This document shows, one piece after another, positions 43,866 through 55,107 of a stretch of DNA of 56,303 nt. The translations under genes and the position numbers were made by a program. Each line of letters opens with the position of its first letter. Position 1 is the first letter of the stretch. This DNA comes from a virus (taxonomy: Duplodnaviria; Caudoviricetes): the IMG/VR virus record IMGVR_UViG_3300032216_001772, positions 1-56,303 of that record. One strand, given 5' to 3'. The notes under the pieces are model-generated. The model had not been told where the DNA came from. It saw only the letters and a list, made by a program, of their open reading frames with translations, and did not search any database.

Positions 43866-43928
43866 GACTACACACCCCTTGATTCTTTTGACTACACACC
43901 CCTCGATTCTTTTGACTACACACCCCTC
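43866..43928 (+). repeat. 24-bp tandem repeat (about 2.6 copies)
   Basis: GACTACACACCCCTYGATTCTTTT at 43866 and 43890, partial at 43914; a further GACTACAC at 43950. Confidence 0.95.
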
Positions 43929-43975
43929 AAATTTCTCAAACTATTTTGTGACTACACGGCGTGTCGCCTTTTCAT

Positions 43976-43997
43976 TGTCTGTCGTGCATGATAGGTT
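43976..43997 (+). promoter_or_regulatory. PafBC/RecA-NDp-like promoter 1
   Basis: TGTCTG-N10-TAGGTT. Confidence 0.7.
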
Positions 43998-44026
43998 ATA
44001 GATAACAACAAAGAATGGATAACAAA

Positions 44027-44164
44027 ATGAAGTGTGAAGTATGTGACTACTTTGACGCTAATGAAGTCATGGTATACAAAACAGAAATACTAAATCTGTC
44101 TATGGTAGTCATGTGTGACTATTGCTTTAGCGAGATAAAGGAGATGAAGAATGCAACGGTCTAA
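44027..44164 (+). CDS. 45-aa Zn-finger protein
   Basis: MKCEVCDY...MCDYCFSEIKEMKNATV, directly after promoter 1. Confidence 0.7.
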   Translation: MKCEVCDYFDANEVMVYKTEILNLSMVVMCDYCFSEIKEMKNATV

Positions 44165-44276
44165 GGCGTACTATATCACTAGGTCTATCGCTAGGCTATT
44201 GGTCATGTGCATACAGGCTGGTCTTATCATCACTGGTATGTATTGGTTTATACTGTTTGCATGGTCACTGTCATAG
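44151..44276 (+). CDS. 41-aa membrane peptide
   Basis: AAGGAG RBS; MQRSKAYYITRSIARLLVMCIQAGLIITGMYWFILFAWSLS. Confidence 0.65.
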   Translation: MQRSKAYYITRSIARLLVMCIQAGLIITGMYWFILFAWSLS

Positions 44277-44361
44277 GCGTGTCGCCTTGACATACCCCTG
44301 GATCGAGGCCCGGCCGCCGTTACCAAATTGTTATAATAAACATGCCATATAGGCTTTTCAT

Positions 44362-44383
44362 TGTCCGATGTCGATGTTAGAAT
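44362..44383 (+). promoter_or_regulatory. PafBC/RecA-NDp-like promoter 2
   Basis: TGTCCG-N10-TAGAAT. Confidence 0.75.
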
Positions 44384-44405
44384 GTAGACATAAGCAAAGA
44401 GAGAA

Positions 44406-44446
44406 TGAGCCTAGCAAATAATCCGCAAGGTGAGCCTAGCAAATAA
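44406..44446 (+). repeat. 16-bp direct repeat in a 5' leader
   Basis: TGAGCCTAGCAAATAA at 44406 and 44431. Confidence 0.9.
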
Positions 44447-44474
44447 GTCTCTCAATAAAGAATAGGAAATAGAA

Positions 44475-44669
44475 ATGACATTAGCAGAAACAGGAATCAA
44501 GCAAGACTTGACTATCGGTAACGTAGTTGCCATTAGCCGTAAAGGTGTAATCCGTGCAAGCGGAATTATCGAATCAGTAAAGCAAATCAACCAAGACCGT
44601 TTTGACGTAACATTCACTAACGGAAAGACTGAGTCAATGGTATGGGGAAAGACGCTCACGGTAGTTTGA
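44475..44669 (+). CDS. 64-aa small beta-barrel (SH3/KOW-like) protein
   Basis: QDLTIGNVVAI...GIIESVKQ...FDVTFTNG pattern; AGGA RBS. Confidence 0.75.
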   Translation: MTLAETGIKQDLTIGNVVAISRKGVIRASGIIESVKQINQDRFDVTFTNGKTESMVWGKTLTVV

Positions 44670-44670
44670 G

Positions 44671-44692
44671 TGTCAGACCCTCATGTTAGAAT
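44671..44692 (+). promoter_or_regulatory. PafBC/RecA-NDp-like promoter 3
   Basis: TGTCAG-N10-TAGAAT. Confidence 0.8.
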
Positions 44693-44716
44693 AAAAACAA
44701 CAAGAAAGGAAAACTA

Positions 44717-44860
44717 ATGTATATAGTAGAAGTAATCAAGAAGGGTATCGGAGTCGTTGAGACTTTCGGTTCACGGTCTAAGGCAGAAGCAGAAGCACAA
44801 AAGAACGCTTATGCTCTCATGTATCCTGACCATGTAGTCATGATGGAATGGTCAAACTAG
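44717..44860 (+). CDS. 47-aa hypothetical protein
   Basis: GAAAGGAAAACTA-ATG; MYIVEVIKKGIGVVETFGSRSKAEAEAQKNAYALMYPDHVVMMEWSN. Confidence 0.75.
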   Translation: MYIVEVIKKGIGVVETFGSRSKAEAEAQKNAYALMYPDHVVMMEWSN

Positions 44861-44943
44861 GGCGTGTCAACTTGACATACCCGAAATTTTGGGCCGGGCG
44901 ATCCGGCCGCCTGTGGATAACTTTTACGTTGCTACGATTTCAC

Positions 44944-44965
44944 TGTCAGACCCTCGTGTTAGAAT
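44944..44965 (+). promoter_or_regulatory. PafBC/RecA-NDp-like promoter 4
   Basis: TGTCAG-N10-TAGAAT. Confidence 0.8.
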
Positions 44966-44991
44966 GAAGACATAAAGAAAGGAAAACTAAA

Positions 44992-45177
44992 ATGGAAACT
45001 ATGACAAAAATGATTCGGACTCAGGGAATCGGTGATGGCTTCACCGTAATCAACCCACAGGATGGATACCGTAAAGATAACACTATCTGGAACGGTACTT
45101 GCTCTGAGTGTGGTGAGCGAGTGTATAACTCAATCATGACTAACTACAAATGGAAACACCAGACCAAATGCGTTTGA
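44992..45177 (+). CDS. 61-aa hypothetical protein with CxxC
   Basis: GAAAGGAAAACTAAA-ATG; GTCSECGERV...WKH. Confidence 0.75.
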   Translation: METMTKMIRTQGIGDGFTVINPQDGYRKDNTIWNGTCSECGERVYNSIMTNYKWKHQTKCV

Positions 45178-45178
45178 G

Positions 45179-45200
45179 TGTCCGTGGCTTGTGTTAGAAT
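45179..45200 (+). promoter_or_regulatory. PafBC/RecA-NDp-like promoter 5
   Basis: TGTCCG-N10-TAGAAT. Confidence 0.75.
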
Positions 45201-45225
45201 AATATCAAATGAAAGGAAAACTAAA

Positions 45226-45348
45226 ATGAAAGAATGTTTCTTGTGTGATGCTGGCACTCTTGCCACTACTGTATCACCATACAACTACCCTGTTTGTGCT
45301 AGTCACTACAGCGAAGACATCCGTGAATTCGCTACCGACTATTCATAA
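45226..45348 (+). CDS. 40-aa Zn-finger protein
   Basis: GAAAGGAAAACTAAA-ATG; MKECFLCDAG...PVCASHYSED (CxxC and CxxH). Confidence 0.75.
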   Translation: MKECFLCDAGTLATTVSPYNYPVCASHYSEDIREFATDYS

Positions 45349-45374
45349 ACCATAAACAACGAAAGGTAAAACTA

Positions 45375-45536
45375 ATGACAAATCACGACCGTATCTCAGG
45401 AATCCTAGAGACAATCCGAATTGCTAAGGGTGCAGACTCTCACGCTGACGTTATGCCCTATGTCATCGGCATGATGACCGCCGTCCTCAACGACTCACAA
45501 CTTGAGGCTATGGAAGAGGTAGCCCAGCAATACTAA
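45375..45536 (+). CDS. 53-aa hypothetical protein
   Basis: GAAAGGTAAAACTA-ATG; MTNHDRISGILETIRIAKGADSHADVMPYVIGMMTAVLNDSQLEAMEEVAQQY. Confidence 0.75.
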   Translation: MTNHDRISGILETIRIAKGADSHADVMPYVIGMMTAVLNDSQLEAMEEVAQQY

Positions 45537-45617
45537 CATATTCCAGAAATGGAATGTGGGCCGGGATGGATCCGGCCGCCCAGTTACGAAATGACATTAA
45601 AAACCCTGGACTTTCAT

Positions 45618-45639
45618 TGTCCGACGTATCTGTTAGTCT
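45618..45639 (+). promoter_or_regulatory. PafBC/RecA-NDp-like promoter 6
   Basis: TGTCCG-N10-TAGTCT. Confidence 0.75.
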
Positions 45640-45667
45640 TGTATTACAAACAACGAAAGGATAACTA

Positions 45668-45856
45668 ATGCGATTCGACCCTATTTTTGGTGAGGCTAAC
45701 GAGATTGTTGGCTACCTCGACGACATGGGCAACGAGTGGACTGTCGAGCAAGTCGAGGACTACTGGGATGTCTCAGGCAACGAGCCTGACGGCATGTGGC
45801 TTGATGAGGACGCTCTTAACTCTGTTGGCTGGGGTAGTGACGAGGCTTATTTCTAA
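45668..45856 (+). CDS. 62-aa highly acidic protein
   Basis: GAAAGGA RBS; 17 D/E against 1 R and no K; ends DALNSVGWGSDEAYF. Confidence 0.8.
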   Translation: MRFDPIFGEANEIVGYLDDMGNEWTVEQVEDYWDVSGNEPDGMWLDEDALNSVGWGSDEAYF

Positions 45857-45925
45857 ACTACTCACAGGGGGGGGCCGGGACCGTTATCAGATCGTTACAT
45901 TGAATTACGTCTATTACGTTTTCAC

Positions 45926-45947
45926 TGTCAGTCGCTCATGTTAGTAT
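45926..45947 (+). promoter_or_regulatory. PafBC/RecA-NDp-like promoter 7
   Basis: TGTCAG-N10-TAGTAT. Confidence 0.8.
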
Positions 45948-45971
45948 TGTAATATAACGAAAGGAAAACTA

Positions 45972-46139
45972 ATGGAAGAAAAAATACTGGTATCGGTTTG
46001 GGTGCTCAATCAGTGGATTGAAAACGCTCGTGGTGAGGAAAAGCACTGGGCAGAGCAGGGCAATATCGCTATGGAAAACTACTACGCTAGTCGTGCTCGT
46101 GCTTTTGAGTTTATTCTCTCTGAGTTTAGAAACAACTAA
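45972..46139 (+). CDS. 55-aa hypothetical protein
   Basis: GAAAGGAAAACTA-ATG; MEEKILVSVWVLNQWIENARGEEKHW... Confidence 0.75.
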   Translation: MEEKILVSVWVLNQWIENARGEEKHWAEQGNIAMENYYASRARAFEFILSEFRNN

Positions 46140-46157
46140 AGAAAAGGACACACTAAA

Positions 46158-46337
46158 ATGATGACACGCAAAGACTATGTTTCGACTGCTAAGATTCTCA
46201 ATGATTTATGGTATGATTTGCCAATCAGTAACATTGAGCTATTTGAGGATACCGTTATGGCTTTCTCTAAGATGTTTGCAGAAGATAATGAACGATTCGA
46301 CCACAAGATTTTTTATAACGCTTGTTTCAAGGAGTAG
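46158..46337 (+). CDS. 59-aa phage protein (MTRKDY...DNxRFD...AC type)
   Basis: AAGGA RBS; MMTRKDYVSTAKIL...FAEDNERFDHKIFYNACFKE. Confidence 0.8.
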   Translation: MMTRKDYVSTAKILNDLWYDLPISNIELFEDTVMAFSKMFAEDNERFDHKIFYNACFKE

Positions 46338-46407
46338 TATCCTCCCTTTCGGGGGCCGGGCCTCGTTACCAAATCGTTACATTGGATTAAGGACATTACG
46401 TTTTCAT

Positions 46408-46429
46408 TGTCAGACCCCTGTGATAGTAT
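46408..46429 (+). promoter_or_regulatory. PafBC/RecA-NDp-like promoter 8
   Basis: TGTCAG-N10-TAGTAT; ATG 6 nt downstream (leaderless). Confidence 0.8.
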
Positions 46430-46435
46430 TTAGTT

Positions 46436-46597
46436 ATGAAGAAGAAAACGAAACCCCAGAAGATTGCCAACACCGCATACATTATTGCTATGCGTGAGTT
46501 GCGTAAGTCAAATGCGGCTACTACTCACGACAACCGACCTAACCGTCAGAGGACTCGTGGGGCAATCAAGCAAGTAGCAATCAAGGAGTTTGCATAA
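46436..46597 (+). CDS. 53-aa basic protein, leaderless
   Basis: MKKKTKPQKIANTAYIIAMRELRKSNAATTHDNRPNRQRTRGAIKQVAIKEFA. Confidence 0.75.
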   Translation: MKKKTKPQKIANTAYIIAMRELRKSNAATTHDNRPNRQRTRGAIKQVAIKEFA

Positions 46598-46746
46598 TGG
46601 ATATGAGAACAAAGAATCGTATTCGTGAACACACAGGCGATGAGCATTGGCTAGTCACGATAAGTAATCATTCGGTACAGCGTGAAGGAAAATCATTGTT
46701 CATGTGTATCTGTGGCTGGCGTGGCTGGCTTGATAATCAGTCGTAA
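46597..46746 (+). CDS. 49-aa hypothetical protein
   Basis: AAGGAG RBS, TAATG overlap; ends FMCICGWRGWLDNQS. Confidence 0.7.
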   Translation: MDMRTKNRIREHTGDEHWLVTISNHSVQREGKSLFMCICGWRGWLDNQS

Positions 46747-46758
46747 TCTTGATACAAT
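46730..46758 (+). promoter_or_regulatory. Sigma-A type promoter for the tRNA pair
   Basis: TTGATA-N17-TACAAT, 8 nt before tRNA-Asp. Confidence 0.7.
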
Positions 46759-46766
46759 GAAGTAAT

Positions 46767-46842
46767 GGCTCTGTAACTCAGTGGTTAGAGTGCCACCCTG
46801 TCACGGTGGAAGTCGCCAGTTCAAGTCTGGTCAGAGTCGCCA
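46767..46842 (+). tRNA. trnD: tRNA-Asp(GTC)
   Basis: Acceptor GGCTCTG/CAGAGTC, anticodon arm CCACC-CTGTCAC-GGTGG, T loop GTTCAAG, encoded CCA. Confidence 0.95.
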
Positions 46843-46843
46843 T

Positions 46844-46915
46844 TCCCCTTTAGCTCAACGGCAGAGCAACGCACTGTTAATGCGTAGGTTCTTGGTTCGA
46901 ATCCAAGAGGGGGAG
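46844..46915 (+). tRNA. trnN: tRNA-Asn(GTT), CCA not encoded
   Basis: Acceptor TCCCCTT/AGGGGGA, anticodon arm ACGCA-CTGTTAA-TGCGT, T arm CTTGG-TTCGAAT-CCAAG. Confidence 0.95.
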
Positions 46916-46938
46916 CAAGGATCCGGCCTCACTTTCAC

Positions 46939-46960
46939 TGTCAGAGGTAGGTGTTAATCT
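46939..46960 (+). promoter_or_regulatory. PafBC/RecA-NDp-like promoter 9
   Basis: TGTCAG-N10-TAATCT. Confidence 0.75.
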
Positions 46961-46986
46961 TGTATTACAACGAAAGGAAAAATATC

Positions 46987-47166
46987 GTGGCTTATGTGTC
47001 TGAGTATGGTAATTATGGCAGTGAGGGAGTGATTGTATTCCCAGACTATCAACTTACCCCCGAACAATGGGATGAGTTAGATGTTCTGCCAGACAACGAC
47101 AAAATGTCGTATGTTAAGGGTATACTGGATGAAAACGAACTAGGATATATGGAGTTTAACGACTAA
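46987..47166 (+). CDS. 59-aa acidic protein
   Basis: GAAAGGAA RBS, GTG start; AYVSEYGNYGSEG...LTPEQWDELDVLPDNDK. Confidence 0.75.
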   Translation: MAYVSEYGNYGSEGVIVFPDYQLTPEQWDELDVLPDNDKMSYVKGILDENELGYMEFND

Positions 47167-47345
47167 TGAAACGTGAATCATTTATTCCACCTAAAGGAAT
47201 GTCAGAAAAAGAGTTTCTCTCTATAGTTGCAAATGACCTATTGGACATGGTAATATTAGGTGAGGTAAACTTTACCTATGTTCCTTCTGCTCGTGACTTT
47301 ATTGTCAAGTATGGAACACCTCGACACCGAAAGGGTAGAAAATGA
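47166..47345 (+). CDS. 59-aa hypothetical protein
   Basis: TAATG overlap, GGAG RBS; MKRESFIPPKGMSEKEFLSIVANDLL... Confidence 0.65.
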   Translation: MKRESFIPPKGMSEKEFLSIVANDLLDMVILGEVNFTYVPSARDFIVKYGTPRHRKGRK

Positions 47346-47485
47346 AAAGTAATCCATTCCCCGATGATGAACAGGCTACCGAAATTATGGAAGCACTAGA
47401 TGACTACTATGCTAATCCACAAGACTATTCGTTTCGTGACCTTGAGGAAATCTTCCAAGACCGTGACCCATTTGAGTTTCTCTAA
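47342..47485 (+). CDS. 47-aa acidic protein
   Basis: ATGA overlap; MKSNPFPDDEQATEIMEALDDYYANPQDYSFRDLEEIFQDRDPFEFL. Confidence 0.7.
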   Translation: MKSNPFPDDEQATEIMEALDDYYANPQDYSFRDLEEIFQDRDPFEFL

Positions 47486-47493
47486 GGAGTAGT

Positions 47494-47700
47494 ATGCCCA
47501 AGTATCGCATAAAGGCGACGGTAACGGTAGAAATGTATCTACCTGATGACTTTGACCCCAATAGGGATAACGAAGGAGACATCCTCTATTCCCTTGATGG
47601 ATATATTCGTGAAGATGGTGTAGACGGTTGGAGACTGTGGAAAGCCGCATTGGCTGACAATGGTATGTGGCATAACGATGCAGACTACAAGGTGATTTGA
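47494..47700 (+). CDS. 68-aa hypothetical protein
   Basis: AAGGAG RBS; MPKYRIKATVTVEM... Confidence 0.75.
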   Translation: MPKYRIKATVTVEMYLPDDFDPNRDNEGDILYSLDGYIREDGVDGWRLWKAALADNGMWHNDADYKVI

Positions 47701-47759
47701 TGGAACCTTGGATAATTATTGTTTTGGCTATTTGTGTGATGGCTATCTTCTTCGCTTAG
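47700..47759 (+). CDS. 19-aa hydrophobic micropeptide
   Basis: TGATG overlap, AAGGTG RBS; MEPWIIIVLAICVMAIFFA. Confidence 0.5.
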   Translation: MEPWIIIVLAICVMAIFFA

Positions 47760-47788
47760 GCGGAGGGGATCGGCCCGGCCGCTTTCAC

Positions 47789-47810
47789 TGTCAGAGGTGG
47801 ATGTCATAAT
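47789..47810 (+). promoter_or_regulatory. PafBC/RecA-NDp-like promoter 10
   Basis: TGTCAG-N10-CATAAT. Confidence 0.7.
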
Positions 47811-47835
47811 GGTATTACAACGAAAGGAAAACGTA

Positions 47836-48330
47836 ATGGGCTTGGATATGTATTTAGAGGTTCGCAAGTTTGTCGAAACCCACGATTGGGTAAACGAGAA
47901 CGGCGAGTTTGTTCGTAAGGAAACTGAAGGTGCAGAGGCTATCAAGGTTGCAGGTCTTGAGAACCTTACTTCGAAAGATGCTGTTGGCATTACTGTTCAG
48001 ACTACCGCCATTTACTGGCGTAAGGTAAACGCTATTCACAACTGGTTTGTCAACACCTGTGCCAATGGTGTAGACGAATGTCAGCAGATTTCTGTAGACC
48101 GTAGCAAGTTGCAAGCCTTGCGTGACCAAGTAGAGTTGGTTGTTCGCAAAAAGAATCCAGCAGTTGCTCAAGAGTTTTTGCCAACCTCATCAGGTTTCTT
48201 CTTTGGCTCAACTGAGTATGACGAGTGGTATTGGTCAGATATGCAATTCACTCTTGATGAACTCAACCGTGTGTTGTCTGAGACGACGGACTCATATGGG
48301 ATTGACTTCTTCTATCAGGCTTCCTGGTAG
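47836..48330 (+). CDS. Conserved phage protein (MGLDMYL...YWRKxNAIHxWF...GFFFG...YQASW family), function unknown
   Basis: GAAAGGAA RBS before ATG 47836; recognisable family motifs. Confidence 0.85.
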   Translation: MGLDMYLEVRKFVETHDWVNENGEFVRKETEGAEAIKVAGLENLTSKDAVGITVQTTAIYWRKVNAIHNWFVNTCANGVDECQQISVDRSKLQALRDQVELVVRKKNPAVAQEFLPTSSGFFFGSTEYDEWYWSDMQFTLDELNRVLSETTDSYGIDFFYQASW

Positions 48331-48401
48331 ACAGACGAGGGGTGCGACTCGCTAACGCATAACCCTTCGGGGGCCGGGCCGCTTGATCTTGCAAGTTTCA
48401 C

Positions 48402-48423
48402 TGTCAGTGGTCAATGTTACGAT
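48402..48423 (+). promoter_or_regulatory. PafBC/RecA-NDp-like promoter 11
   Basis: TGTCAG-N10-TACGAT; ATG 6 nt downstream (leaderless). Confidence 0.8.
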
Positions 48424-48429
48424 AAGTAT

Positions 48430-49152
48430 ATGACAAAGTTGATTCGCTCAAAAGACCGTAAAGTAACCAATGCTGTAACGCCTAATGGCAAGCAAGCCTC
48501 TATCGCTAACACTTTTGGTTTGCCTTCTGGCACTGCTTTTTCATGTCCAGGTGCTACTAGCGTATGCGAAACTATCTGCTACGCTGGCAAGTTGGAAAAG
48601 GTATTTAAGGGTGTGCGTATCAACCTCGAACACAACTGGGCATTAGTCAAAGACGCTGACTATCTTACTATCTATGACCTCATTTATGAAATGATTAGTG
48701 ATTTTGTTGCTGATTGCGAACGTCGTGGTGCAGAAAAGTTGTTCCGCATTCACTGGGACGGTGACTTCTTTAATGAAGAGTACACATACGCATGGCGTGA
48801 TGTTATCTGTGAGTTTGAGGATGTTCAGTTTTGGGCATACACTCGTAGTGCTTTTGCTGTGCCTATCCTAATTGACATTCCTAACCTTGGCTTTTATTTC
48901 TCAACTGATAGTGCTAACAAAGATTTGGCTGTCTCTCTCAAAAAAACTCACGGTATCAAGTTGGCTTACCTTGCTCAGACATTTGCTATTGGTAAGGCTG
49001 ACATTCTTGAGATTACTGGTGAGTCTGCTATCCCATGCCCCGAAAATAACAAAAAGATTCCTATGATTAGCGAAAAGGGTAGTGCCTGTGTTACCTGTGG
49101 GCAATGTATCTTCCAACGCAATGACATTCTATTCTCTGCTACTAAAAAGTAG
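48430..49152 (+). CDS. Gene product 88 (GP88)-like Cys-cluster protein (radical-SAM-like)
   Basis: SCPGATSVCETICYA, FRIHWDGDF, FWAYTRS, CPE...ACVTCGQC. Confidence 0.8.
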   Translation: MTKLIRSKDRKVTNAVTPNGKQASIANTFGLPSGTAFSCPGATSVCETICYAGKLEKVFKGVRINLEHNWALVKDADYLTIYDLIYEMISDFVADCERRGAEKLFRIHWDGDFFNEEYTYAWRDVICEFEDVQFWAYTRSAFAVPILIDIPNLGFYFSTDSANKDLAVSLKKTHGIKLAYLAQTFAIGKADILEITGESAIPCPENNKKIPMISEKGSACVTCGQCIFQRNDILFSATKK

Positions 49153-49239
49153 TGGAGGGTGGGCCGGGGATCCGGCCGCCCACCCCTAATGTTACGATTG
49201 TGTTACGAAACGCTGAAAATAGCCCACAGGACTTGATAT

Positions 49240-49261
49240 TGTCCGTGGTTTCTGTCATACT
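49240..49261 (+). promoter_or_regulatory. PafBC/RecA-NDp-like promoter 12, with overlapping TTGATA -35
   Basis: TGTCCG-N10-CATACT. Confidence 0.7.
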
Positions 49262-49325
49262 AGATATATCAGCAAGACCGCTGGTAATTAGGTTGGCTGG
49301 CTCGCCAACAGAAATGAGGAAGCAA

Positions 49326-49472
49326 ATGAACGCAGTAATCGGAGAAACCTTCACCACGCAGAAGTCTGGCGTATCGGGAACGGTTCAGGAGATTATCAAG
49401 AACTCCAACGGTTCGACTCGTATCCGCTTGTCGCTTGCTAACGGCGACAGCCGTTGGACTACGGTCAAGTAA
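49326..49472 (+). CDS. 48-aa small beta-barrel protein
   Basis: GAGG RBS; MNAVIGETFTTQKSGVSGTVQEIIKNSNGSTRIRLSLANGDSRWTTVK. Confidence 0.8.
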   Translation: MNAVIGETFTTQKSGVSGTVQEIIKNSNGSTRIRLSLANGDSRWTTVK

Positions 49473-49489
49473 GGTCAGACCCTAGTCTG

Positions 49490-49516
49490 CTTGCTGGGCA
49501 TCAAGTCAAACTGCCC
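49490..49516 (+). ncRNA. Candidate H-type pseudoknot element A
   Basis: CTTG-CTGGGCAT-CAAG-TCAAAC-TGCCC; stems CTTG/CAAG and GGGCA/TGCCC. Confidence 0.5.
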
Positions 49517-49551
49517 ACTCAAATCCAAAAGCCAAATGAAAGGAAAACATA

Positions 49552-50001
49552 ATGGCTCGTTCGCTCTCTGTGAAGATTCCCACCGCAAGTCTTATTGCTG
49601 ACGTAGAGGCAAGCATCTCTGACCTTGAGGCTAAAATTGCTACCTACCCTGTTGATATGGAAGCATACCGTGTAGCAACCAAGGCACACCAAGATGTTGT
49701 TCTCAAGACCGTTATCGAGGCTCTCAAGAACCCTGATAATGTTGGTGACGAATATGGCTCTATTGTTCGTGTTCAGCAAAATCGTTATGGTCGTAATGGT
49801 GTAGAGATTGAGGTAAACACCGATTTGCTCGGTATCCCACAGCCTCCTGAGTGTCCCTCTAACCCAAATGCCAAAGAGTCGTTTGGTCGTGACTACACTA
49901 CTCGTCTTGACTTGCTGAAGAAGAACCTCAAGGTTCTCAAGATGACAAACCAGGAAGAAGTCAATGCCTCAACCTACAATACGGTGATTGACCTCCTCTA
50001 G
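49552..50001 (+). CDS. 149-aa hypothetical protein
   Basis: GAAAGGAA RBS; MARSLSVKIPTASLI...EEVNASTYNTVIDLL. Confidence 0.85.
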   Translation: MARSLSVKIPTASLIADVEASISDLEAKIATYPVDMEAYRVATKAHQDVVLKTVIEALKNPDNVGDEYGSIVRVQQNRYGRNGVEIEVNTDLLGIPQPPECPSNPNAKESFGRDYTTRLDLLKKNLKVLKMTNQEEVNASTYNTVIDLL

Positions 50002-50036
50002 ATTCCATACGCCCCATAAGGGATATGTGGAAAAAT

Positions 50037-50064
50037 GACCTGAGTAGGTCTATGTAAACTGCTC
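50037..50064 (+). ncRNA. Candidate H-type pseudoknot element B
   Basis: GAC-CTGAGTAG-GTC-TATGTAAAC-TGCTC. Confidence 0.5.
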
Positions 50065-50194
50065 ACCTCTCCCCTGTGAAGCGTCTGGATAGATTGCTGG
50101 TAAACAGGGGAGGGGAGCCGGGTAGATCAGATCCGGCCCCCGAATGTAACAATTAGGTTACGATGTTATGAAAAATAGGCCTGAGACTTGATAT

Positions 50195-50216
50195 TGTCAG
50201 ACGTTTCTGTCATACT
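50195..50216 (+). promoter_or_regulatory. PafBC/RecA-NDp-like promoter 13, with overlapping TTGATA -35
   Basis: TGTCAG-N10-CATACT; ATG 6 nt downstream. Confidence 0.75.
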
Positions 50217-50222
50217 GGGAAT

Positions 50223-50438
50223 ATGGAAAAAGTAAAAGGAACGTATTTTGTTGTGACTGGTGAGTCTTACTATGTAAAGGCTGACTCTGAAGATGAGGCT
50301 GAGGCTATCTTCAATGTAGGTATGGGATATATGGATGAGTCTAACTATCCTGACTTTGATACCGCCGATGCTTTCAACCGTATCGAGTATACTGATACCT
50401 ACACCACTTATGAGCCTATCACTGATTTCAGTGTCTGA
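50223..50438 (+). CDS. 71-aa acidic protein, leaderless
   Basis: YYVKADSEDEAEA motif. Confidence 0.8.
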   Translation: MEKVKGTYFVVTGESYYVKADSEDEAEAIFNVGMGYMDESNYPDFDTADAFNRIEYTDTYTTYEPITDFSV

Positions 50439-50453
50439 GGCTACTGTTAGACT
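50432..50453 (+). promoter_or_regulatory. PafBC/RecA-NDp-like promoter 14
   Basis: TGTCTG-N10-TAGACT. Confidence 0.7.
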
Positions 50454-50477
50454 AGTAACATAACGAAAGGGAAAAGA

Positions 50478-50735
50478 ATGATTGACAAAGCATTTGCTTT
50501 ACAGGTAGCGGTTCGTGATTCTGCTTTTGCTCCGTCTGTAAAGATGTCTGCTCTGCTTATCCGTGATGGGTATCAGAACATGACTCAGAAAGAGATGGAG
50601 TCTGCTCTCATGGCACTTGTGTCTGAGGCTGTTTGCGTTTCTTCCTACCAAACCACGATGGTTCTTCTTGACGAGGAAGAACAGAACACACTCGCAAAAA
50701 CGATTGACGAACTACAGGGAATGGGGAACGAATAA
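50478..50735 (+). CDS. 85-aa hypothetical protein
   Basis: GAAAGGG RBS. Confidence 0.8.
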   Translation: MIDKAFALQVAVRDSAFAPSVKMSALLIRDGYQNMTQKEMESALMALVSEAVCVSSYQTTMVLLDEEEQNTLAKTIDELQGMGNE

Positions 50736-51220
50736 TGATGGACTATGAAGACATTGAGGTAAAAGATTTGCCAGCCTCACCTACCTTGGTGGGTATTGAG
50801 TCTGGAGCCTTTACCAAACTTGGTGAACTTGAGGCAGAACTTGAGGGTGTCAAGGCAGAACTGGATGCCTCTCGTGCAAACGCTGAGGATTGGTCTAACC
50901 GTCACACCTATATCTATAACCAACTTGGTGAACTACAGGAAAAACTCAAGAAGGCTTTGACCGAATTGGTTTCTTCTGGTTCCATTGAAAAGGAACACGC
51001 AAAGACCATTGCAGACGAATGTGGTCTTGAGGTTACTAAGTATGTTGGTGTGACTGGAAACATTTCATTCTCTGCAAATGTCGAGGTATCGGTATTTGAT
51101 GAAGATGATTTGGATACCTACAGTTTCAGTGCTTCATACCTGAGTCTTGACTATGATGGCGAGGCTGTCGAAGACTTGCAGTATGACATTGAGAATGTTG
51201 AAGAGGACTATAAGTATTAG
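50735..51220 (+). CDS. 161-aa acidic coiled-coil protein
   Basis: TAATG overlap; heptad region LEAELEGVKAELDASR; very acidic C-terminus. Confidence 0.8.
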   Translation: MMDYEDIEVKDLPASPTLVGIESGAFTKLGELEAELEGVKAELDASRANAEDWSNRHTYIYNQLGELQEKLKKALTELVSSGSIEKEHAKTIADECGLEVTKYVGVTGNISFSANVEVSVFDEDDLDTYSFSASYLSLDYDGEAVEDLQYDIENVEEDYKY

Positions 51221-51274
51221 GCCTTGAAGCTAGGGTAGGGACTTGTTAATTCCTTTCTTAGCCTCTACCCTCAC

Positions 51275-51301
51275 GGACCTGAGCATGTCCTTAAAAGGCT
51301 C
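51275..51301 (+). ncRNA. Candidate H-type pseudoknot element C
   Basis: GGAC-CTGAGCAT-GTCC-TTAAAAG-GCTC. Confidence 0.5.
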
Positions 51302-51384
51302 ATTCTCATGCCCAGGGGGGCCGGGCCGATCCGGCCGCCAATGTAACAATCATGTTACGATGATTAAAAATATGCCCCTGAGAC

Positions 51385-51413
51385 TTGTAATTATTTTAGT
51401 TTTGTGTCATACT
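51385..51413 (+). promoter_or_regulatory. Sigma-A type promoter of the DUF932 gene
   Basis: TTGTAA-N17-CATACT with TG extension; lacks the TGTCNG element. Confidence 0.65.
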
Positions 51414-51449
51414 GATATAAGTAAGCAAACCTCTAACGAAAGGCAATAT

Positions 51450-52472
51450 ATGTCACACGAATTGGAACAGGGTCAGAACGGCGAGGTTGCTTTTGCATCC
51501 TTCCGTGAACCTGCTTGGCATGGTCTTGGGACTGTGTTCGAGGAAGAAGTAAAGACAGCAGATATGCTGAAATTGGCACATCTTGACAACTGGAATGTTC
51601 GCCTTGAGGAGATTCCTATTCCCGAGGGATTTGTCTCTGACAAGACTAACTATTTTGTTGCTCGCACTAACCCCTTCAACGCTGAGCAGAATGACATTCT
51701 TGGAATTGTCGGGCAACGCTACAATACGCTTCAGAACGAATCGCTTTTTGAGTTTGGTGATAACCTGCTTGACGGTGGTGGACGTTGGGAGACGGCTGGC
51801 TCTATCAAGGGTGGTCGTGTTGTGTTTGGTGCTTTGGCACTTGAGCGTGAAACGGTGCTTGACCCTAACGGTGTAGCCGACAAGGTAAACACTTACCTAT
51901 TGGTAAACACATCGCACGATGGGTCGGTGTCCATTATGGCGAGCATTACGCCTGTGCGTGTTGTGTGTGCGAACACTCTGAACATGGCTATCGGTTCAGG
52001 CACAGGACATTGGCGTAACGCTAAGCAGTCGTTCAAGATTCGTCACACTCAGACGGCTGAGGGTCGTGTTCAGGCTGCTCGTGAGGCTCTTGGTCTTGCC
52101 AACGAATACATGGACGAGTTTGATAAAATGGCTCAGGCTATGATTGAGACAGAAATCACGAATGACAAGTTCCAGGAGATTCTTCGTGCCGTCTACCCCA
52201 TGCCCGAAAAGGATGCTAAGGGTGCTATGTCAAAGTGGCAGACAAAGTTGGAACTCATCGAGGACATCTACGGTGGACAGTTCAACAACACGATTACAGG
52301 AACGGCTTGGGGTGCATTGAACGGCATCACCGAACGTCTTGACTGGTATCGTGCAGGACGCAAGGGCAACAGCGAAAGCGTGTTGGCTTCTGCTTCTGGC
52401 TTCGACCCTGCTATCAACGCTGAGAAGAATCGTATTCTCAAGATTGTTCAGGAACTGACAATGGCTTCCTAG
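51450..52472 (+). CDS. DUF932 / TIGR03299-type phage-plasmid protein (340 aa)
   Basis: MSHELE...REPAWHGLG, WETAGSIKGGRVVF, NTSHDGS, TPVRVVCANTL, IRHT, GTAWGALNGITE; GAAAGG RBS before ATG 51450. Confidence 0.92.
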   Translation: MSHELEQGQNGEVAFASFREPAWHGLGTVFEEEVKTADMLKLAHLDNWNVRLEEIPIPEGFVSDKTNYFVARTNPFNAEQNDILGIVGQRYNTLQNESLFEFGDNLLDGGGRWETAGSIKGGRVVFGALALERETVLDPNGVADKVNTYLLVNTSHDGSVSIMASITPVRVVCANTLNMAIGSGTGHWRNAKQSFKIRHTQTAEGRVQAAREALGLANEYMDEFDKMAQAMIETEITNDKFQEILRAVYPMPEKDAKGAMSKWQTKLELIEDIYGGQFNNTITGTAWGALNGITERLDWYRAGRKGNSESVLASASGFDPAINAEKNRILKIVQELTMAS

Positions 52473-52652
52473 TCGGTGACTCCCTGCCCTCCCTTGTGGA
52501 GGGTGGGGGGGCCGGGCGATCAGATCCGGCCTCTACTTAGTATATAGATAATCATCTAAATCTAATTACGAAGAAGTAAAAAAATCCCTGGATATTCCAA
52601 CAAACGGAAGAAAAAATTAGGTAATCCGAACCTTTCATGTCATACTGTATAT

Positions 52653-52754
52653 ATGAATGAATTTGAGATAGAGATGAAAGTTATACTGTCAGAGGCTCTT
52701 GATATACTTGAGAGACTATCAGATGAAGATATAGAAAGGTTGTATATTTCCTAA
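52653..52754 (+). CDS. 33-aa acidic peptide, leaderless
   Basis: TGTCATACT-N6-ATG; MNEFEIEMKVILSEALDILERLSDEDIERLYIS; TAATG overlap with next gene. Confidence 0.5.
   Translation: MNEFEIEMKVILSEALDILERLSDEDIERLYIS
52687..52708 (+). promoter_or_regulatory. PafBC/RecA-NDp-like promoter 15
   Basis: TGTCAG-N10-TATACT. Confidence 0.7.
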
Positions 52755-52930
52755 TGGGTAAGTATTATATCAAGACTATGGTTGAGTGGTCAGGCGAGGT
52801 TTATGCCGATACCGCCGAGGAAGCCGAGAAGATGGGTTGGAACTGGGATACAGAACTCATGTATGACGGAGTGTATTCTATCGATGTAGAGGTTGTCGAT
52901 GAAGATGATGACGAAGACGAAGCCTTGTGA
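52754..52930 (+). CDS. 58-aa acidic protein
   Basis: GAAAGG RBS; MGKYYIKTMVEWSGEVYADTAEEAEKMGW...DEDDDEDEAL. Confidence 0.75.
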   Translation: MGKYYIKTMVEWSGEVYADTAEEAEKMGWNWDTELMYDGVYSIDVEVVDEDDDEDEAL

Positions 52931-53027
52931 CGATTGCCAAGCACCTGTTGACGCAGATGTTTGGGTAGAGGAATTAGGCATGTGTATTGATTGTTCAGAT
53001 AAGTATTGGAGTCATGAAGATGAGTAA
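52899..53027 (+). CDS. 42-aa Zn-finger protein
   Basis: GAGG RBS; KPCDDCQAPVDADVWVEELGMCIDCSDKYW. Confidence 0.65.
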   Translation: MKMMTKTKPCDDCQAPVDADVWVEELGMCIDCSDKYWSHEDE

Positions 53028-53181
53028 GTATAAGATTATTGTTGAAGAGGTTGGCACAGCCATCGTTGAGATTGAAGCCGAAGATGAGTTTGTGGCTGAA
53101 GACATTGCTATCGATATGTGGGGCAATGGCGACCTTGATGGTTTGATGATGCGTGATGTGTCTGTGACGGTGGAACACTAA
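53020..53181 (+). CDS. 53-aa acidic protein
   Basis: GGAG RBS; MSKYKIIVEEVGTAIVEIEAEDEFVAEDIA. Confidence 0.75.
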   Translation: MSKYKIIVEEVGTAIVEIEAEDEFVAEDIAIDMWGNGDLDGLMMRDVSVTVEH

Positions 53182-53414
53182 TGGCTAAGCCAAAGGTAGC
53201 CGACCAAACATGGAGGCGAATCTACCATTCCAGGGTAGCAGAGGTATACGAATCGGATAGCGAGAACGACTACTACAAGGTAGTACTAGAAGACATGCGA
53301 CCAAAGTATTTCTATGGTGAGTTGGCATTTCAGAATTACCAACGCTATGTATATGACTTTGAGATGGCTACCCTGTACTCACAGGATAATGCCATGATGA
53401 AGAAGTATCGGTAG
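53181..53414 (+). CDS. 77-aa hypothetical protein
   Basis: TAATG overlap; RPKYFYGELAF. Confidence 0.75.
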   Translation: MAKPKVADQTWRRIYHSRVAEVYESDSENDYYKVVLEDMRPKYFYGELAFQNYQRYVYDFEMATLYSQDNAMMKKYR

Positions 53415-53431
53415 GCGTGGTAAAATAGAAT

Positions 53432-53665
53432 ATGACACCTATTATTTATACTAAACCTAACTGCGTACAGTGTGATGCAACTAAACGTTACTTTGATAAC
53501 AAAGGTGTAGCCTACACTACCGTCGATATTACACAGGACTCAGATGCACTCGATCGACTAATTGCCGAGGGATTCAAAGCAGCTCCTGTTGTTAATATAG
53601 ATACACACTGGTGGAGTGGATTCCAACCAGACTTAATAGATAAACACATAGCTAACTATTCTTAG
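53432..53665 (+). CDS. nrdH: NrdH-like glutaredoxin
   Basis: IYTKPNCVQCDATKR...GFKAAPVV...WSGFQPDLI. Confidence 0.92.
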   Translation: MTPIIYTKPNCVQCDATKRYFDNKGVAYTTVDITQDSDALDRLIAEGFKAAPVVNIDTHWWSGFQPDLIDKHIANYS

Positions 53666-53687
53666 TGTCAGACCCTAATGGTAAGGT
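53666..53687 (+). promoter_or_regulatory. PafBC/RecA-NDp-like promoter 16
   Basis: TGTCAG-N10-TAAGGT; ATG 6 nt downstream. Confidence 0.75.
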
Positions 53688-53693
53688 GGTAAT

Positions 53694-54077
53694 ATGACAG
53701 CAACTATAGACCTATCCTACGATGCGTGGGTAATGAAATACAAGCCTGAGTTAGATTCAGACGGTAGCCCTAAGATGTATGAAACGTATGGTGACGACTA
53801 TGACTATATCGCAGATGTAGACAACGAACACCTTTGGACATGGGTAGACGGAGGCGACTACAGTGTTATTGCTAATGGATTTCACCTTGTTAATCGTTTA
53901 GGCTACTATGTTTGTACCGTGCCATGTAGCACAGACATTTCTGTTGAGGTAGATGTATATGTACCAACAGAGTGTGAAGAAACTGGTAATCATTATTGGA
54001 CAGAGCATGAACGCTATGATGGAACCATAGTGACCATTTGCTCAGAATGCGAGGTAGACAAAGATGGAGAAGAGTAA
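53694..54077 (+). CDS. 127-aa acidic phage protein, leaderless
   Basis: MYETYGDD...WTWVDG...GFHLVNRLGYYVC; C-terminal CxxC. Confidence 0.8.
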   Translation: MTATIDLSYDAWVMKYKPELDSDGSPKMYETYGDDYDYIADVDNEHLWTWVDGGDYSVIANGFHLVNRLGYYVCTVPCSTDISVEVDVYVPTECEETGNHYWTEHERYDGTIVTICSECEVDKDGEE

Positions 54078-54420
54078 GACAATGGGTGAGCAGGCCAACT
54101 ATGACCTGAACATTTACAACAGGGGAGCAGACGAGTCTACCATCCTACCCAAGGAAGATTACTACGATGAGTGGTGGCTATGTCCTTATCAGATTAATGG
54201 AGACATGTCTGGTTATGGCGTAGGAGAAGAGTGTAGTGAATGGAACTTTAAACTAACTGATGAGGAAGCTAAGACTCTTACCCTTGGATGGGGACCTGAG
54301 CTTGGTGGAGACTACACAAACGATAATGATTTCTGGTTAGATAAGAATTCATTCCTAGAAATGTACAAGACCATTCCTCCGAGGGTACAAAGGTATCTTG
54401 ACAGTCTCCCTCCTTACTGA
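54064..54420 (+). CDS. 118-aa acidic hypothetical protein
   Basis: GAGG RBS; ORF track. Confidence 0.75.
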   Translation: MEKSKTMGEQANYDLNIYNRGADESTILPKEDYYDEWWLCPYQINGDMSGYGVGEECSEWNFKLTDEEAKTLTLGWGPELGGDYTNDNDFWLDKNSFLEMYKTIPPRVQRYLDSLPPY

Positions 54421-54426
54421 TACAAT
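54398..54426 (+). promoter_or_regulatory. Near-consensus sigma-A promoter
   Basis: TTGACA-N17-TACAAT. Confidence 0.75.
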
Positions 54427-54435
54427 GGAGAGACA

Positions 54436-54660
54436 ATGAGAATAACCAACAATGAAAAAGCAGCAACTAAGATTCTCGATGCCCTCAATGACCACACACT
54501 AGACACATATATGATTGGATTTCATATCTTTAAGTTTGCTACACTTGACTTATATGTTAAACTAGAAGAAGTAATGGACGGTATTGACAAGGCTATCGAA
54601 GTAGAGAATGAGAGAGTAGAGAAAAAGAATGAACGACGAAAACAAAACGCCCCTTTCTAA
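54436..54660 (+). CDS. 74-aa hypothetical protein
   Basis: GGAG RBS; ORF track. Confidence 0.75.
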   Translation: MRITNNEKAATKILDALNDHTLDTYMIGFHIFKFATLDLYVKLEEVMDGIDKAIEVENERVEKKNERRKQNAPF

Positions 54661-54979
54661 CCAATGTGATATTTTGGCAGAGTTGTGGATTCAGTATAAG
54701 GATGACGAGAACTTTGCAGACTTTATCCAATACAATGATTTGGGCTTGCCTCTTGCCTATGCCTTGTCTAATGGTATTATCGAAGCAAGCGAACGAGCAA
54801 AGGCGTTTGTAGAAGAAACCTTCTCAACCCTTATGTGGGCATTGACTGGTGAAGATGTTGCTGTCACAGACCCTGAAGATGGAAGCGACTACTTTAATAA
54901 GCCAGAGCCTTGGCTAAGTCAAGAGTTCACTACTTTAGAAGATGTGTTCTTGTTCTTTGGAACAGACGTTCCTAACTAA
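54629..54979 (+). CDS. 116-aa hypothetical phage protein
   Basis: CDILAELWIQY..DFIQYNDLGLPLAY. Confidence 0.8.
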   Translation: MNDENKTPLSNQCDILAELWIQYKDDENFADFIQYNDLGLPLAYALSNGIIEASERAKAFVEETFSTLMWALTGEDVAVTDPEDGSDYFNKPEPWLSQEFTTLEDVFLFFGTDVPN

Positions 54980-55107
54980 CTAACACCCTGCCTCCCTTCG
55001 GGGAGGTGGGGCCGGACCCCTCCCAAATACAAATAACCCATATATCAAATAAATAACATTACGAAGGACCTAAAAAAATCGTGGGACTTTTTACGAAAGG
55101 AGATCAA

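Follow-up and report, generated by a model that had tools for sequence, protein, structure and literature searches.

Why would a phage strip short palindromes from the genes of one block and leave the same words in the linkers between these genes? The question is raised by a 56,303 bp stretch of phage DNA, the whole of the IMG/VR virus record IMGVR_UViG_3300032216_001772 (rated 52% complete), which is referred to as the window. Structural genes on the minus strand occupy positions 1-43,800 and encode a 2,918 amino acid tape measure together with portal, capsid and tail proteins. Next to them lies the region studied here:

43866..55040, + strand: early-type block with 31 small genes, 2 transfer RNAs (tRNAs), promoter-like repeats and 13 boundary elements rich in guanine and cytosine (GC)

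An earlier note on this DNA had claimed that GATC, GGCC and CCGG are purged from the early genes and concentrated in the linkers, where they would be kept on purpose, possibly as sacrificial cut points. We find that the purge is real. The linker sites belong mostly to a short GC-only word, which differs between lineages and whose conservation points to selection.

Short palindromes are purged from the early genes

Curation of the 31 plus-strand genes by ribosome-binding site and open frame divides the block into 8353 bp of coding and 2822 bp of intergenic DNA. GATC occurs 14 times in the block, 13 times between genes and once in coding DNA, at 53552 (Fisher p = 1.8e-7). The 13 linker positions listed in the earlier note are all exact and all intergenic. 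CCGG and GGCC partition in the way that the note had described, with 0 coding against 19 intergenic copies of CCGG (Fisher p = 4e-12) and 1 coding against 24 intergenic copies of GGCC (Fisher p = 8e-14). One more GGCC spans a stop codon.

As the null, we used a synonymous-codon shuffle of the early genes with 500 shuffles. Ten of the 16 palindromic tetramers are depleted, and for each of them none of the 500 shuffles is as low as the observed count. The observed counts and shuffle means are 1 and 29.2 for GATC, 1 and 13.2 for GGCC, 0 and 6.1 for CCGG, 5 and 36.5 for AGCT, 0 and 9.8 for GCGC, 0 and 8.2 for CGCG, 13 and 36.7 for TTAA, 11 and 30.4 for GTAC, 12 and 33.0 for ACGT, and 15 and 41.1 for AATT. 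When all 256 tetramers are ranked, palindromes take 10 of the 12 most depleted places; the median ratio of observed to expected counts is 0.36 for palindromes and 1.03 for the other tetramers (p = 5e-7). The late genes (n = 23, 40 kb) show a median palindrome ratio of 0.89. Only CCGG, GCGC, CGCG and TCGA are clearly low among them, and neither GATC (155 against 140 expected) nor GGCC (30 against 30.6) is avoided. Because the depletion goes beyond the shuffles and the late genes are low in only four words, the purge is broad and specific both to palindromes and to the block.

Counts over the whole of positions 1-43865 are similar. GATC occurs there 173 times against 144 expected, as the earlier note had said of the structural region, and GGCC 32 times against 30-46 expected, while CCGG (1), GCGC (2) and CGCG (3) are nearly missing there too. 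The check that the note had named, a comparison of observed and expected palindrome counts in coding and intergenic DNA on both sides of 43.9 kb, thus gave a significant partition.

Other words also deviate. At positions 1-43865, TGCA reaches 332 copies against 144 expected from base composition, and TCGA is low (20 against 39-144). Over the whole window, CTGCAG occurs 31 times and CAGCTG 20 times. The early genes are also low in two non-palindromic words of the linkers, TACG (10 against 29) and GTTA (17 against 33), which suggests that the signal words of the linkers (GTTACG) are avoided in coding DNA.

The linker sites lie in or beside a GC-only word

The boundary elements are as follows, numbered by position.

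E1, 44301..44319: GATC with GGCCCGGCCGCCG, 14 nucleotides (nt) after the TTGACA of the dyad GGCGTGTCGCCTTGACA
E2, 44891..44911: GGGCCGGGC-GATC-CGGCCGCC, with a predicted 6-bp stem GGCCGG/CCGGCC; a DnaA-box word follows at 44912
E3, 45558..45581: central GGATCC; a 7-bp stem is predicted
E4, 45867..45893: G8-CCGGG ... GATC, without a predicted stem
E5, 46350..46362: CGGGGGCCGGGCC, after the hairpin CCTCCC-TTTC-GGGGG; without GATC (AAATCG replaces the AGATCG of E4)
E6, 46919..46928: GGATCCGGCC, starting 3 nt past the 3' end of tRNA-Asn
E7, 47765..47782: GGGGATCGGCCCGGCCGC, abutting the next promoter-like repeat
E8, 48368..48388: CGGGGGCCGGGCCGCTTGATC, after a small hairpin CCC-TTCG-GGG
E9, 49158..49185: long dyad GGTGGGCCGGG-GATC-CGGCCGCCCACC; the RNA fold of 49140-49200 is -23.8 kcal/mol
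E10, 50107..50142: GATC at 50125 and 50130, in the loop of a GCCGGG/CCGGC stem
E11, 51315..51339: GGGGGGCCGGGCC-GATC-CGGCCGCC, upstream of the DUF932 gene
E12, 52505..52531: GATC at 52518 and 52523, after the hairpin CCCTCC-CTTGT-GGAGGG that trails the DUF932 gene
E13, 55004..55021: at the block end, GGGGCCGGACCCC after CCTCCC-TTCG-GGGAGG; without GATC

GGCCGG or CCGGCC is present in every one of the 13 elements, and the fullest form of the element is GGGCCGGG-N-GATC-CGGCCGCC. All 13 linker GATC sites lie in or beside the elements. So do all linker GGCC and CCGG sites except one, the GGCC at 50178, which is part of a promoter-type repeat. Elements are located past the stop codon of a cassette, and most directly follow a small hairpin whose loop is of the UUCG or GAAA type; on their 3' side come repeats of GTTAC words and then the next promoter unit. 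The element word is confined to the block linkers (13 copies) and has no copy in the other 45 kb of the window. A single CCGG (41558) locates outside the block, along with 27 shorter GC-only runs, one of which is at least 9 nt long.

The composition of this word accounts for much of what the earlier note had seen. The GC-only runs of the block contain 159 tetramers, of which 42 (26%) are palindromes, where GC-only sequence would be expected to give 25%; these 42 comprise GGCC and CCGG alone, and GCGC and CGCG are missing. Meanwhile, 18 of the 19 CCGG sites overlap a GGCC, forming GGCCGG or CCGGCC. Since palindromes are as frequent in the GC runs as expected for such a composition, the concentration of GGCC and CCGG in the linkers, which the note had rightly observed, follows from the repeated GC-only word. 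For GATC, the clustering is confirmed and the enrichment is not: 12 of the 14 block sites lie within 25 nt of a GC island, where islands and flanks make up 10.5% of the block, and the linker count of 13 against 9-11 expected is undepleted, not enriched.

A stem of at least 6 bp is predicted in 6 of the 13 elements, and the other 7 have no stem or one of at most 4 bp. The presence of the word in all 13 elements and of a predicted stem in only 6 favours the word over the hairpin. In addition, the first three linkers contain the dyad GGCGTGTCnnCTTGACA (TGTC..GACA) at 43958-43974, 44276-44292 and 44861-44877. The GC word follows TTGACA after 14-15 nt in E1 and E2, and the same spacing was found in three related loci described below (L009, L020 and L024).

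Relatives conserve the elements and change the word

Using the DUF932 protein as query, we found 395 relatives in viral contigs and kept 80 loci, which together with the window make 81 sequences. Calling the longest open reading frames over-calls coding DNA in these 80 loci (in the window, 5 of the 14 GATC sites come out as coding, against 1 after curation), and the resulting table was used only for per-block totals and for which words are absent. The test of GATC against GC islands comprised the window and 42 of the 80 loci, which were hand-picked for holding most of the block and include some near-duplicates.

The block is syntenic in the relatives, with GATC sparse over approximately 11 kb around the DUF932 gene. 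When the window is aligned with its nearest relative, L015, the elements are 90.6% identical (256 columns), whereas identity is 82.8% in intergenic DNA outside them and 77.4% at third positions of codons. Because the elements exceed the third positions by this much, the alignment indicates that they are constrained and that selection, not chance, holds the linker sites. To this extent, the earlier claim that the sites are kept on purpose is supported.

The GC-rich linker word itself is lineage-specific, with 5-17 copies per lineage.

GGCCGGG: the window, L015 and others
GGCGCC: L006, L007 and L009
GGGGCCGCC: L011 and L012
GGGGCGCA: L016
GGGGCGACC: L017 and L022; without a 4-6 bp restriction-type palindrome
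GGCCGACC: L020; without a 4-6 bp restriction-type palindrome
GGCGAGCC: L024; without a 4-6 bp restriction-type palindrome
GGGCCC: L030 and L039
GACGTC: L058

The words of L074/L079 and L080 likewise lack such a palindrome, and the asymmetric words are found in both orientations. We searched the 81 sequences for tetramers that are nearly banned elsewhere and occur at least four times in GC islands. Such a tetramer exists in 16 sequences (CCGG in 11, GCGC in 5), and in the remaining 65 no palindromic tetramer behaves in this way. Avoidance of banned words by these 65 sets of islands suggests that selection acts on the elements too, where possible. GATC lies near GC islands in 181 of 740 cases, against 44 expected; loci L006-L024 show this association strongly, but past L024 most loci show it weakly or not at all. 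The avoided words differ by lineage, and in the block totals AGCT, TCGA, GGCC or GCGC is zero in some lineages and not in others. This is what differing host restriction repertoires would give.

One complete relative (G004, 112,245 bp; loci L209-L214) allowed us to follow the purge along its full length in 4 kb bins. The ratio of observed to expected palindromic tetramers falls to 0.37-0.47 only in the two bins of the block, against 0.68-0.94 in the 26 full bins outside it. Its 9 signature words all lie within the block, at 73.4-84.0 kb. CCGG, GCGC and CGCG are each zero in the whole of this genome (43% GC), which is an absolute ban and not a bias.

We considered two other accounts of the purge and rejected both. 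Depletion of the early genes as inertia after a host switch does not agree with the 11 CCGG-using sequences, which are at least 15% apart and all have 0-3 CCGG outside the islands, although this argument is rough. The block as foreign DNA of another composition is contradicted by G004, whose block has the GC content of the genome, yet alone is purged.

Cassette differences between the window and L015, L006 or L009 break at linkers or gene edges. The earlier note had proposed to look for breaks at the linkers, and they are found there; ordinary phage mosaicism is enough for such a pattern. An extra cassette of L015 is bounded by duplicated promoter repeats and has no element of its own. Between lineages with GGCCGG and with GGCGCC, several small genes diverge faster (47494-47700, 47836-48330 and 50735-51220), none with a known DNA-binding domain. 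An exact-pattern scan of viral contigs for the window element matched more than 120 contigs, each once, and only one of them is a known relative (the contig of L015). The other matches are taken to be chance, and the scan is uninformative on word sharing between phage groups.

We also notice paired perfect DnaA-box words (TGTGGATAA), 3 nt apart, directly after the GC word in linkers of relatives. They lie at approximately 630 and 1315 in L009, 2430 and 3375 in L020, and 9860 in L024; the window has a single box, at 44912.

Cultured Streptomyces phages carry the elements in a terminal repeat

The portal and DUF932 proteins are 44% and 55% identical, respectively, to those of Streptomyces cluster BE phages. 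One of these, Samisti12, begins and ends with an identical stretch of 10,666 bp, in agreement with PMC5764925, and this repeat contains the DUF932 homologue and approximately 20 small genes. The Samisti12 homologue of the block is this terminal repeat.

The linkers of the Samisti12 repeat run from GGGCCC-TTCG-GGGCCC through TGTCGGGCCCGGACA to a promoter. Of the GGGCCC copies, 15 stand in these linkers, 2 in genes of the repeat and 3 in the remaining 55 kb. Linkers of Coruscant carry GGCGCCCGGCGCC approximately 15 times in the same place. With such elements in the repeats of both phages, the boundary element is an old feature of this phage group, and one open to experiment. Samisti12 has zero GATC in the 66 kb examined, though its elements are present, and Coruscant has 76 GATC in 14 kb.

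Some further features of these phages were observed. The repeat linkers of Samisti12 share a PafBC-type promoter form, for example TGTCGG-N10-TAGACT (L086 7986-8127, reverse strand), and its dyad TGTCGGGCCCGGACA can be read as two inverted tGTCgg half-boxes. Annadreamy (L216), a more distant Streptomyces relative, has an annotated DNA methylase at 1452-2126, near its left end, in contrast to the five environmental relatives searched for methylases (see below).

Genes and promoter-like repeats of the block

The block has a GC content of 41-47%, and the remaining window ranges over 26-50%, mostly 30-40%. Besides the elements, it contains the following features.

46767..46916, + strand: tRNA-Asp and tRNA-Asn, within the early block
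48430..49152, + strand: GP88-family gene (PF17338), a core block gene in relatives
51450..52472, + strand: DUF932 gene, the query for fetching relatives, whose Streptomyces-phage homologue sits in the terminal repeat
53432-53665: glutaredoxin-like gene, holding the sole coding GATC of the block (53552..53555)
43970..53701, + strand: span of 13 promoter-like repeats with the 42 nt unit TTTCACTGTCAG-N10-TAGAAT, one after most elements

Pfam and PHROGs searches with 30 of the 31 block genes (all but 53020-53181) gave family matches only for GP88, DUF932 and glutaredoxin. Megablast of the block against named phages gave a single match, 54 nt of tRNA. The promoter-like repeats fit the PafBC-type pattern without a -35 element; the published consensus is tGTCgg-N10-tAnnnT (PMC8635444), and PafBC is reported to be activated by single-stranded DNA (PMC11804915). 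Of the 16 plus-strand matches to TGTC-N12-TAnnnT in the window, 14 fall in the block.

At the junction of structural genes and early block lie three tandem 24 nt units (GACTACACACCCCT..., 43866-43937). An HNH endonuclease gene on the opposite strand (55669-56247, minus) flanks the block; in Samisti12 and Coruscant, an HNH gene is likewise found at one edge of the terminal repeat. Another hairpin is located at 51278-51310. In relatives it lies within the first 60 nt past the DUF932 stop codon, often with a tRNA next to it. Its loop, TGAnnTAAAAC, is conserved, while its stem varies by compensating pairs (GAGCA/TGCTC, AGGCA/TGCCT and GGGCA/TGCCC). It looks like a separate structured RNA or DNA signal.

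A proposed two-layer explanation

We propose that two layers are superimposed in the block. One is restriction avoidance in the first-expressed DNA, as in phage T5; the other is a set of cis-elements under constraint, which retain their sites even though this is costly. In our judgement, this explanation has an even chance of being right. It builds on what was observed directly: palindromes are depleted in the block and not beyond it, the elements are conserved and have lineage-specific words, and in Samisti12 they lie in the terminal repeat.

In this explanation, the block (43866-55040) would be the early module, read by host RNA polymerase, of a siphovirus of approximately 110 kb of the Stanwilliamsviridae kind. 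By homology, it would be a long terminal repeat and hence the first DNA to be exposed. Selection would strip it of the short palindromes that type II restriction enzymes read, as in the first-step-transfer repeat of T5, and DNA acting later would have to avoid a few words only (CCGG, GCGC, CGCG and TCGA). Promoter-gene cassettes are separated by a conserved cis-element, GC-only and mostly dyad-symmetric, with the form GGCCGG(G)..GATC..CCGGCC in the window; the 3' hairpin of the preceding gene directly precedes it, and operator-like repeats and the next promoter follow. We take this element to be a DNA-level recognition site (an operator, a roadblock or a boundary) for a sequence-specific factor that varies between lineages. 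Such a site would fit best because the word is kept where the stem is not and is confined to the block, because the spacing to TTGACA is fixed, and because whole sets of copies change together between lineages.

Being GC-only and symmetric, the element would inevitably spell GC palindromes. As its sequence is constrained, its sites, including the GATC of one clade, could not be removed free of cost in the way that synonymous sites can. Each restriction site would lower the chance of escape multiplicatively, so that any removal helps. With escape as a product over sites, approximately 100 coding sites purged and a few dozen constrained sites kept would be the expected balance, without a paradox. 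The need to escape host restriction may also drive the turnover of words between lineages. Four parts of this picture are inferences: that the block enters first, that restriction is what selects, that a DNA-binding factor exists, and which host is infected.

Several observations weigh against this explanation. The word is just 8-10 bp long and imperfectly symmetric in some lineages, and the gap between element and promoter repeat can be anything between 0 and 36 nt, an unusual spread if the element is an operator. No domain of a cognate DNA-binding protein was found in the 30 of 31 block genes scanned, in a genome of which 52% is present, and the comparison of lineages revealed no clear case of a gene co-varying with the word. 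The adoption of the banned words CCGG or GCGC by elements in 16 of 81 sequences is tolerated by the explanation and not predicted by it. In the L006-L024 clade, GATC stays beside the element while the word changes, which hints at a role for GATC itself. Samisti12 shows no tetramer purge specific to its repeat, so that the first layer does not hold throughout the wider group. The probable source run gives a depth of 11.4 for the contig over 38995-46063 and of 16.6 for the contig over 46141-55948; the depth change falls inside the block, at a strain bubble, and not at the block edge, and thus speaks neither for nor against a terminal repeat.

Alternative explanations

The elements may instead act in RNA, as hairpins at 3' ends (terminators without a U-tract, or stabilisers) that are kept alike by recombination of linkers, with no lineage-specific factor and with the palindromic words as a by-product of GC-only stems. 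Terminators or stabilisers of this kind are said to be common in actinobacteria. Every cassette does have an element at its 3' end, as does the block as a whole, and the elements with stems of at least 6 bp reach -13 to -37 kcal/mol when folded together with the upstream hairpin. The upstream hairpins with UUCG or GAAA loops vary by compensating changes between linkers and phages, a flipped core retains its G-run/C-run stem, and the repeated promoter units of 42-58 nt would supply homology for gene conversion. Six of the elements have the stems of at least 6 bp noted above, but the seven others, with no stem or a short one, do not suit a hairpin, and neither do the words of L024, L009 and L020, which permit stems of 3-5 bp at most. 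Elements that have lost the stem still keep the word. No element has a U-tract after its stem: terminator-like hits (13, against 11.3 in shuffles) include none of the 13 elements, and 1-5 T without a T-run are found in the 10 bases that follow an element, so that the earlier note was correct about the missing U-tails. Sense and antisense folding of 17 GC islands came out about equal (10 against 7), which is not decisive, and the fixed spacing of 14 or 15 nt to TTGACA is a DNA-type feature. We consider the RNA hairpins unlikely. As one finding that would refute its idea, the note itself had named linkers that act only as terminator hairpins and tolerate the loss of the palindromes. The lineage words without palindromes come close to such tolerated loss, but they do not demonstrate that the elements are plain terminators.

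The idea of the note, that the elements are programmed or sacrificial break sites, can be formulated as follows. A host or phage endonuclease would cut the first-entering repeat only between cassettes, which stay intact, and the single-stranded ends would fire the adjacent PafBC-type promoters; thanks to the second repeat copy, the genome would not be lost. Restriction attack would then become a trigger of early, anti-defence expression, and G-rich 3'-ended strands might halt a host end-processing nuclease in a Chi-like manner. The recurrence of elsewhere-banned CCGG or GCGC in elements is in favour of this, as is the clade's GATC, which lies at or beside the dyad centre and near islands more often than expected. 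Nearly every cassette has its own tGTCnn-N10-TAnnnT promoter, of a type whose activator responds to single-stranded DNA (PMC11804915). A second block copy would exist if the block is a terminal repeat, with the G-run first and the C-run last, a break in the centre would produce G-rich strands with 3' ends to either side, and a preprint proposes an endonuclease that cuts at palindromes of the T5 repeat (10.1101/866236). Cutting is opposed by T5-like phages, which sites in the repeat make sensitive to restriction (PMC10644984). The elements of many lineages lack restriction-type palindromes, those of Samisti12 are present with zero GATC, the palindromic fraction of GC runs is the compositional expectation, and no nuclease was found among the 30 of 31 block genes scanned. 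The claim of sacrificial cut points is therefore not supported; of the purpose that the note had ascribed to the sites, retention by selection has support (including the reuse of banned words) and retention for the sake of cutting has none. The banned-word reuse and the GATC retention in L006-L024 keep a cutting model alive and coherent at low odds; we regard it as very unlikely. If the elements were selfish or recombinogenic repeats resembling repetitive extragenic palindromic (REP) sequences, miniature inverted-repeat transposable elements or attC sites, spread into linkers or serving as joints of cassette exchange, they could be too young or mobile for purging. Their GC-rich, nearly palindromic, purely intergenic and lineage-specific sequences, present in either orientation, and the cassette breaks at linkers or gene edges would agree with this. 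However, their positions are syntenic across lineages whose DNA differs by more than 25%, their conservation exceeds the neutral level, and they are missing from the other 45 kb of the window. The extra cassette of L015 is flanked by duplicated promoter repeats and not by its own element, and the 30 of 31 block genes scanned include no transposase, integrase or RAYT-like gene. Cleavage cores of REP- and attC-like sites are GTAG and GTTRRRY; as an attC-like core, the GTTAC words after the elements do not fit GTTRRRY. Mobile repeats thus seem quite improbable. Finally, the linker sites could be cost-free because they are shielded by a methylase that reads a longer word or by a co-delivered protein, perhaps as decoys or methylation sensors. 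A single GGCC methylase could cover both words at the 18 of 19 CCGG sites that overlap GGCC, and late genes do not avoid GGCC. General GGCC methylation would, on the other hand, make the purge of GGCC from early genes (1 against 13) needless, and the methylase families PF01555, PF00145 and PF02086, the only ones tried, are unmatched in 5 relatives, of which 2 have records rated complete. We consider shielding hardly credible.

Comparison with known systems

Avoidance of sites in first-entering DNA is already known; the breadth and the sharp confinement found here make the block a strong new instance. Among the cases known to us, it is one of the sharpest in which restriction pressure would shape only the first-expressed phage DNA: of the 16 tetramer palindromes, 10 are purged from the 11 kb block, and the rest of the genome avoids four. 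We found no published description of the linker elements in the full text of open-access papers and bioRxiv, nor, in the same sources, of lineage-specific GC dyads at the cassette boundaries of terminal-repeat blocks. The rule known from T5 would be extended to a very large uncultured group (395 relatives) allied to Streptomyces phages. Sets of avoided words could help to infer the restriction repertoires of uncultured hosts.

T5-like phages are described as withstanding type I, II and III systems as long as their first-entering terminal repeat is free of sites (PMC10644984; 10.1101/866236). In T5 and BF23 (Tequintavirus), this repeat of approximately 10 kb holds many small pre-early genes read by host RNA polymerase. 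Restriction and clustered regularly interspaced short palindromic repeat (CRISPR) systems act only on targets in the repeat, which is hence kept free of sites (PMC10644984; 10.1101/866236). Its non-coding parts contain palindromes and paired DnaA boxes 3 nt apart (10.1101/866236), and the relatives of the window carry paired TGTGGATAA boxes at the same distance in their linkers. Unlike T5, the window shows no sequence homology to that phage and points to another host phylum. Its purge spans 10 of 16 tetramer palindromes at once, and its elements stand at every cassette boundary, whereas the T5 palindromes lie in one untranslated region. The likeness in first entry and terminal repeat would follow, for this phage, from homology with Samisti12 only. 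In Murciavirus, the position of a restriction motif in the leading, first-injected region is reported to decide sensitivity (PMC12455610). Leading regions of conjugative plasmids are described as GC-rich, with anti-defence genes, and as 'not consistently depleted' in 4-8 bp palindromes (PMC13478746). The block is likewise richer in GC than the rest of the window, but its palindrome depletion is extreme.

Multi-copy linker sites beside promoters have other counterparts. The conserved inverted repeats of phiC31 and the stoperators of L5 place many copies of a short site, symmetric or asymmetric, in short intergenic spaces beside repeated early promoters. These operator sites differ between related phages and belong to temperate phages with a known repressor. 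The elements are alike in copy number and position beside promoters; the phage here looks lytic, the word is GC-only, and a binder is only inferred. REP sequences and bacterial interspersed mosaic elements are GC-rich imperfect palindromes at gene 3' ends, found in either orientation and species-specific. REPs are chromosomal, reach hundreds of copies and are associated with RAYT transposases. The elements, in contrast, number 13 copies and are confined to one 11 kb phage block.

The BE phages Samisti12 and Coruscant (Stanwilliamsviridae) are true relatives, and their linkers follow the same grammar of UUCG hairpin, GC-only dyad and promoter (PMC5764925). The GC content of Samisti12 is approximately 50%, against 38% here. 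With the same architecture in the repeats of these two cultured phages, the function of the elements is directly testable.

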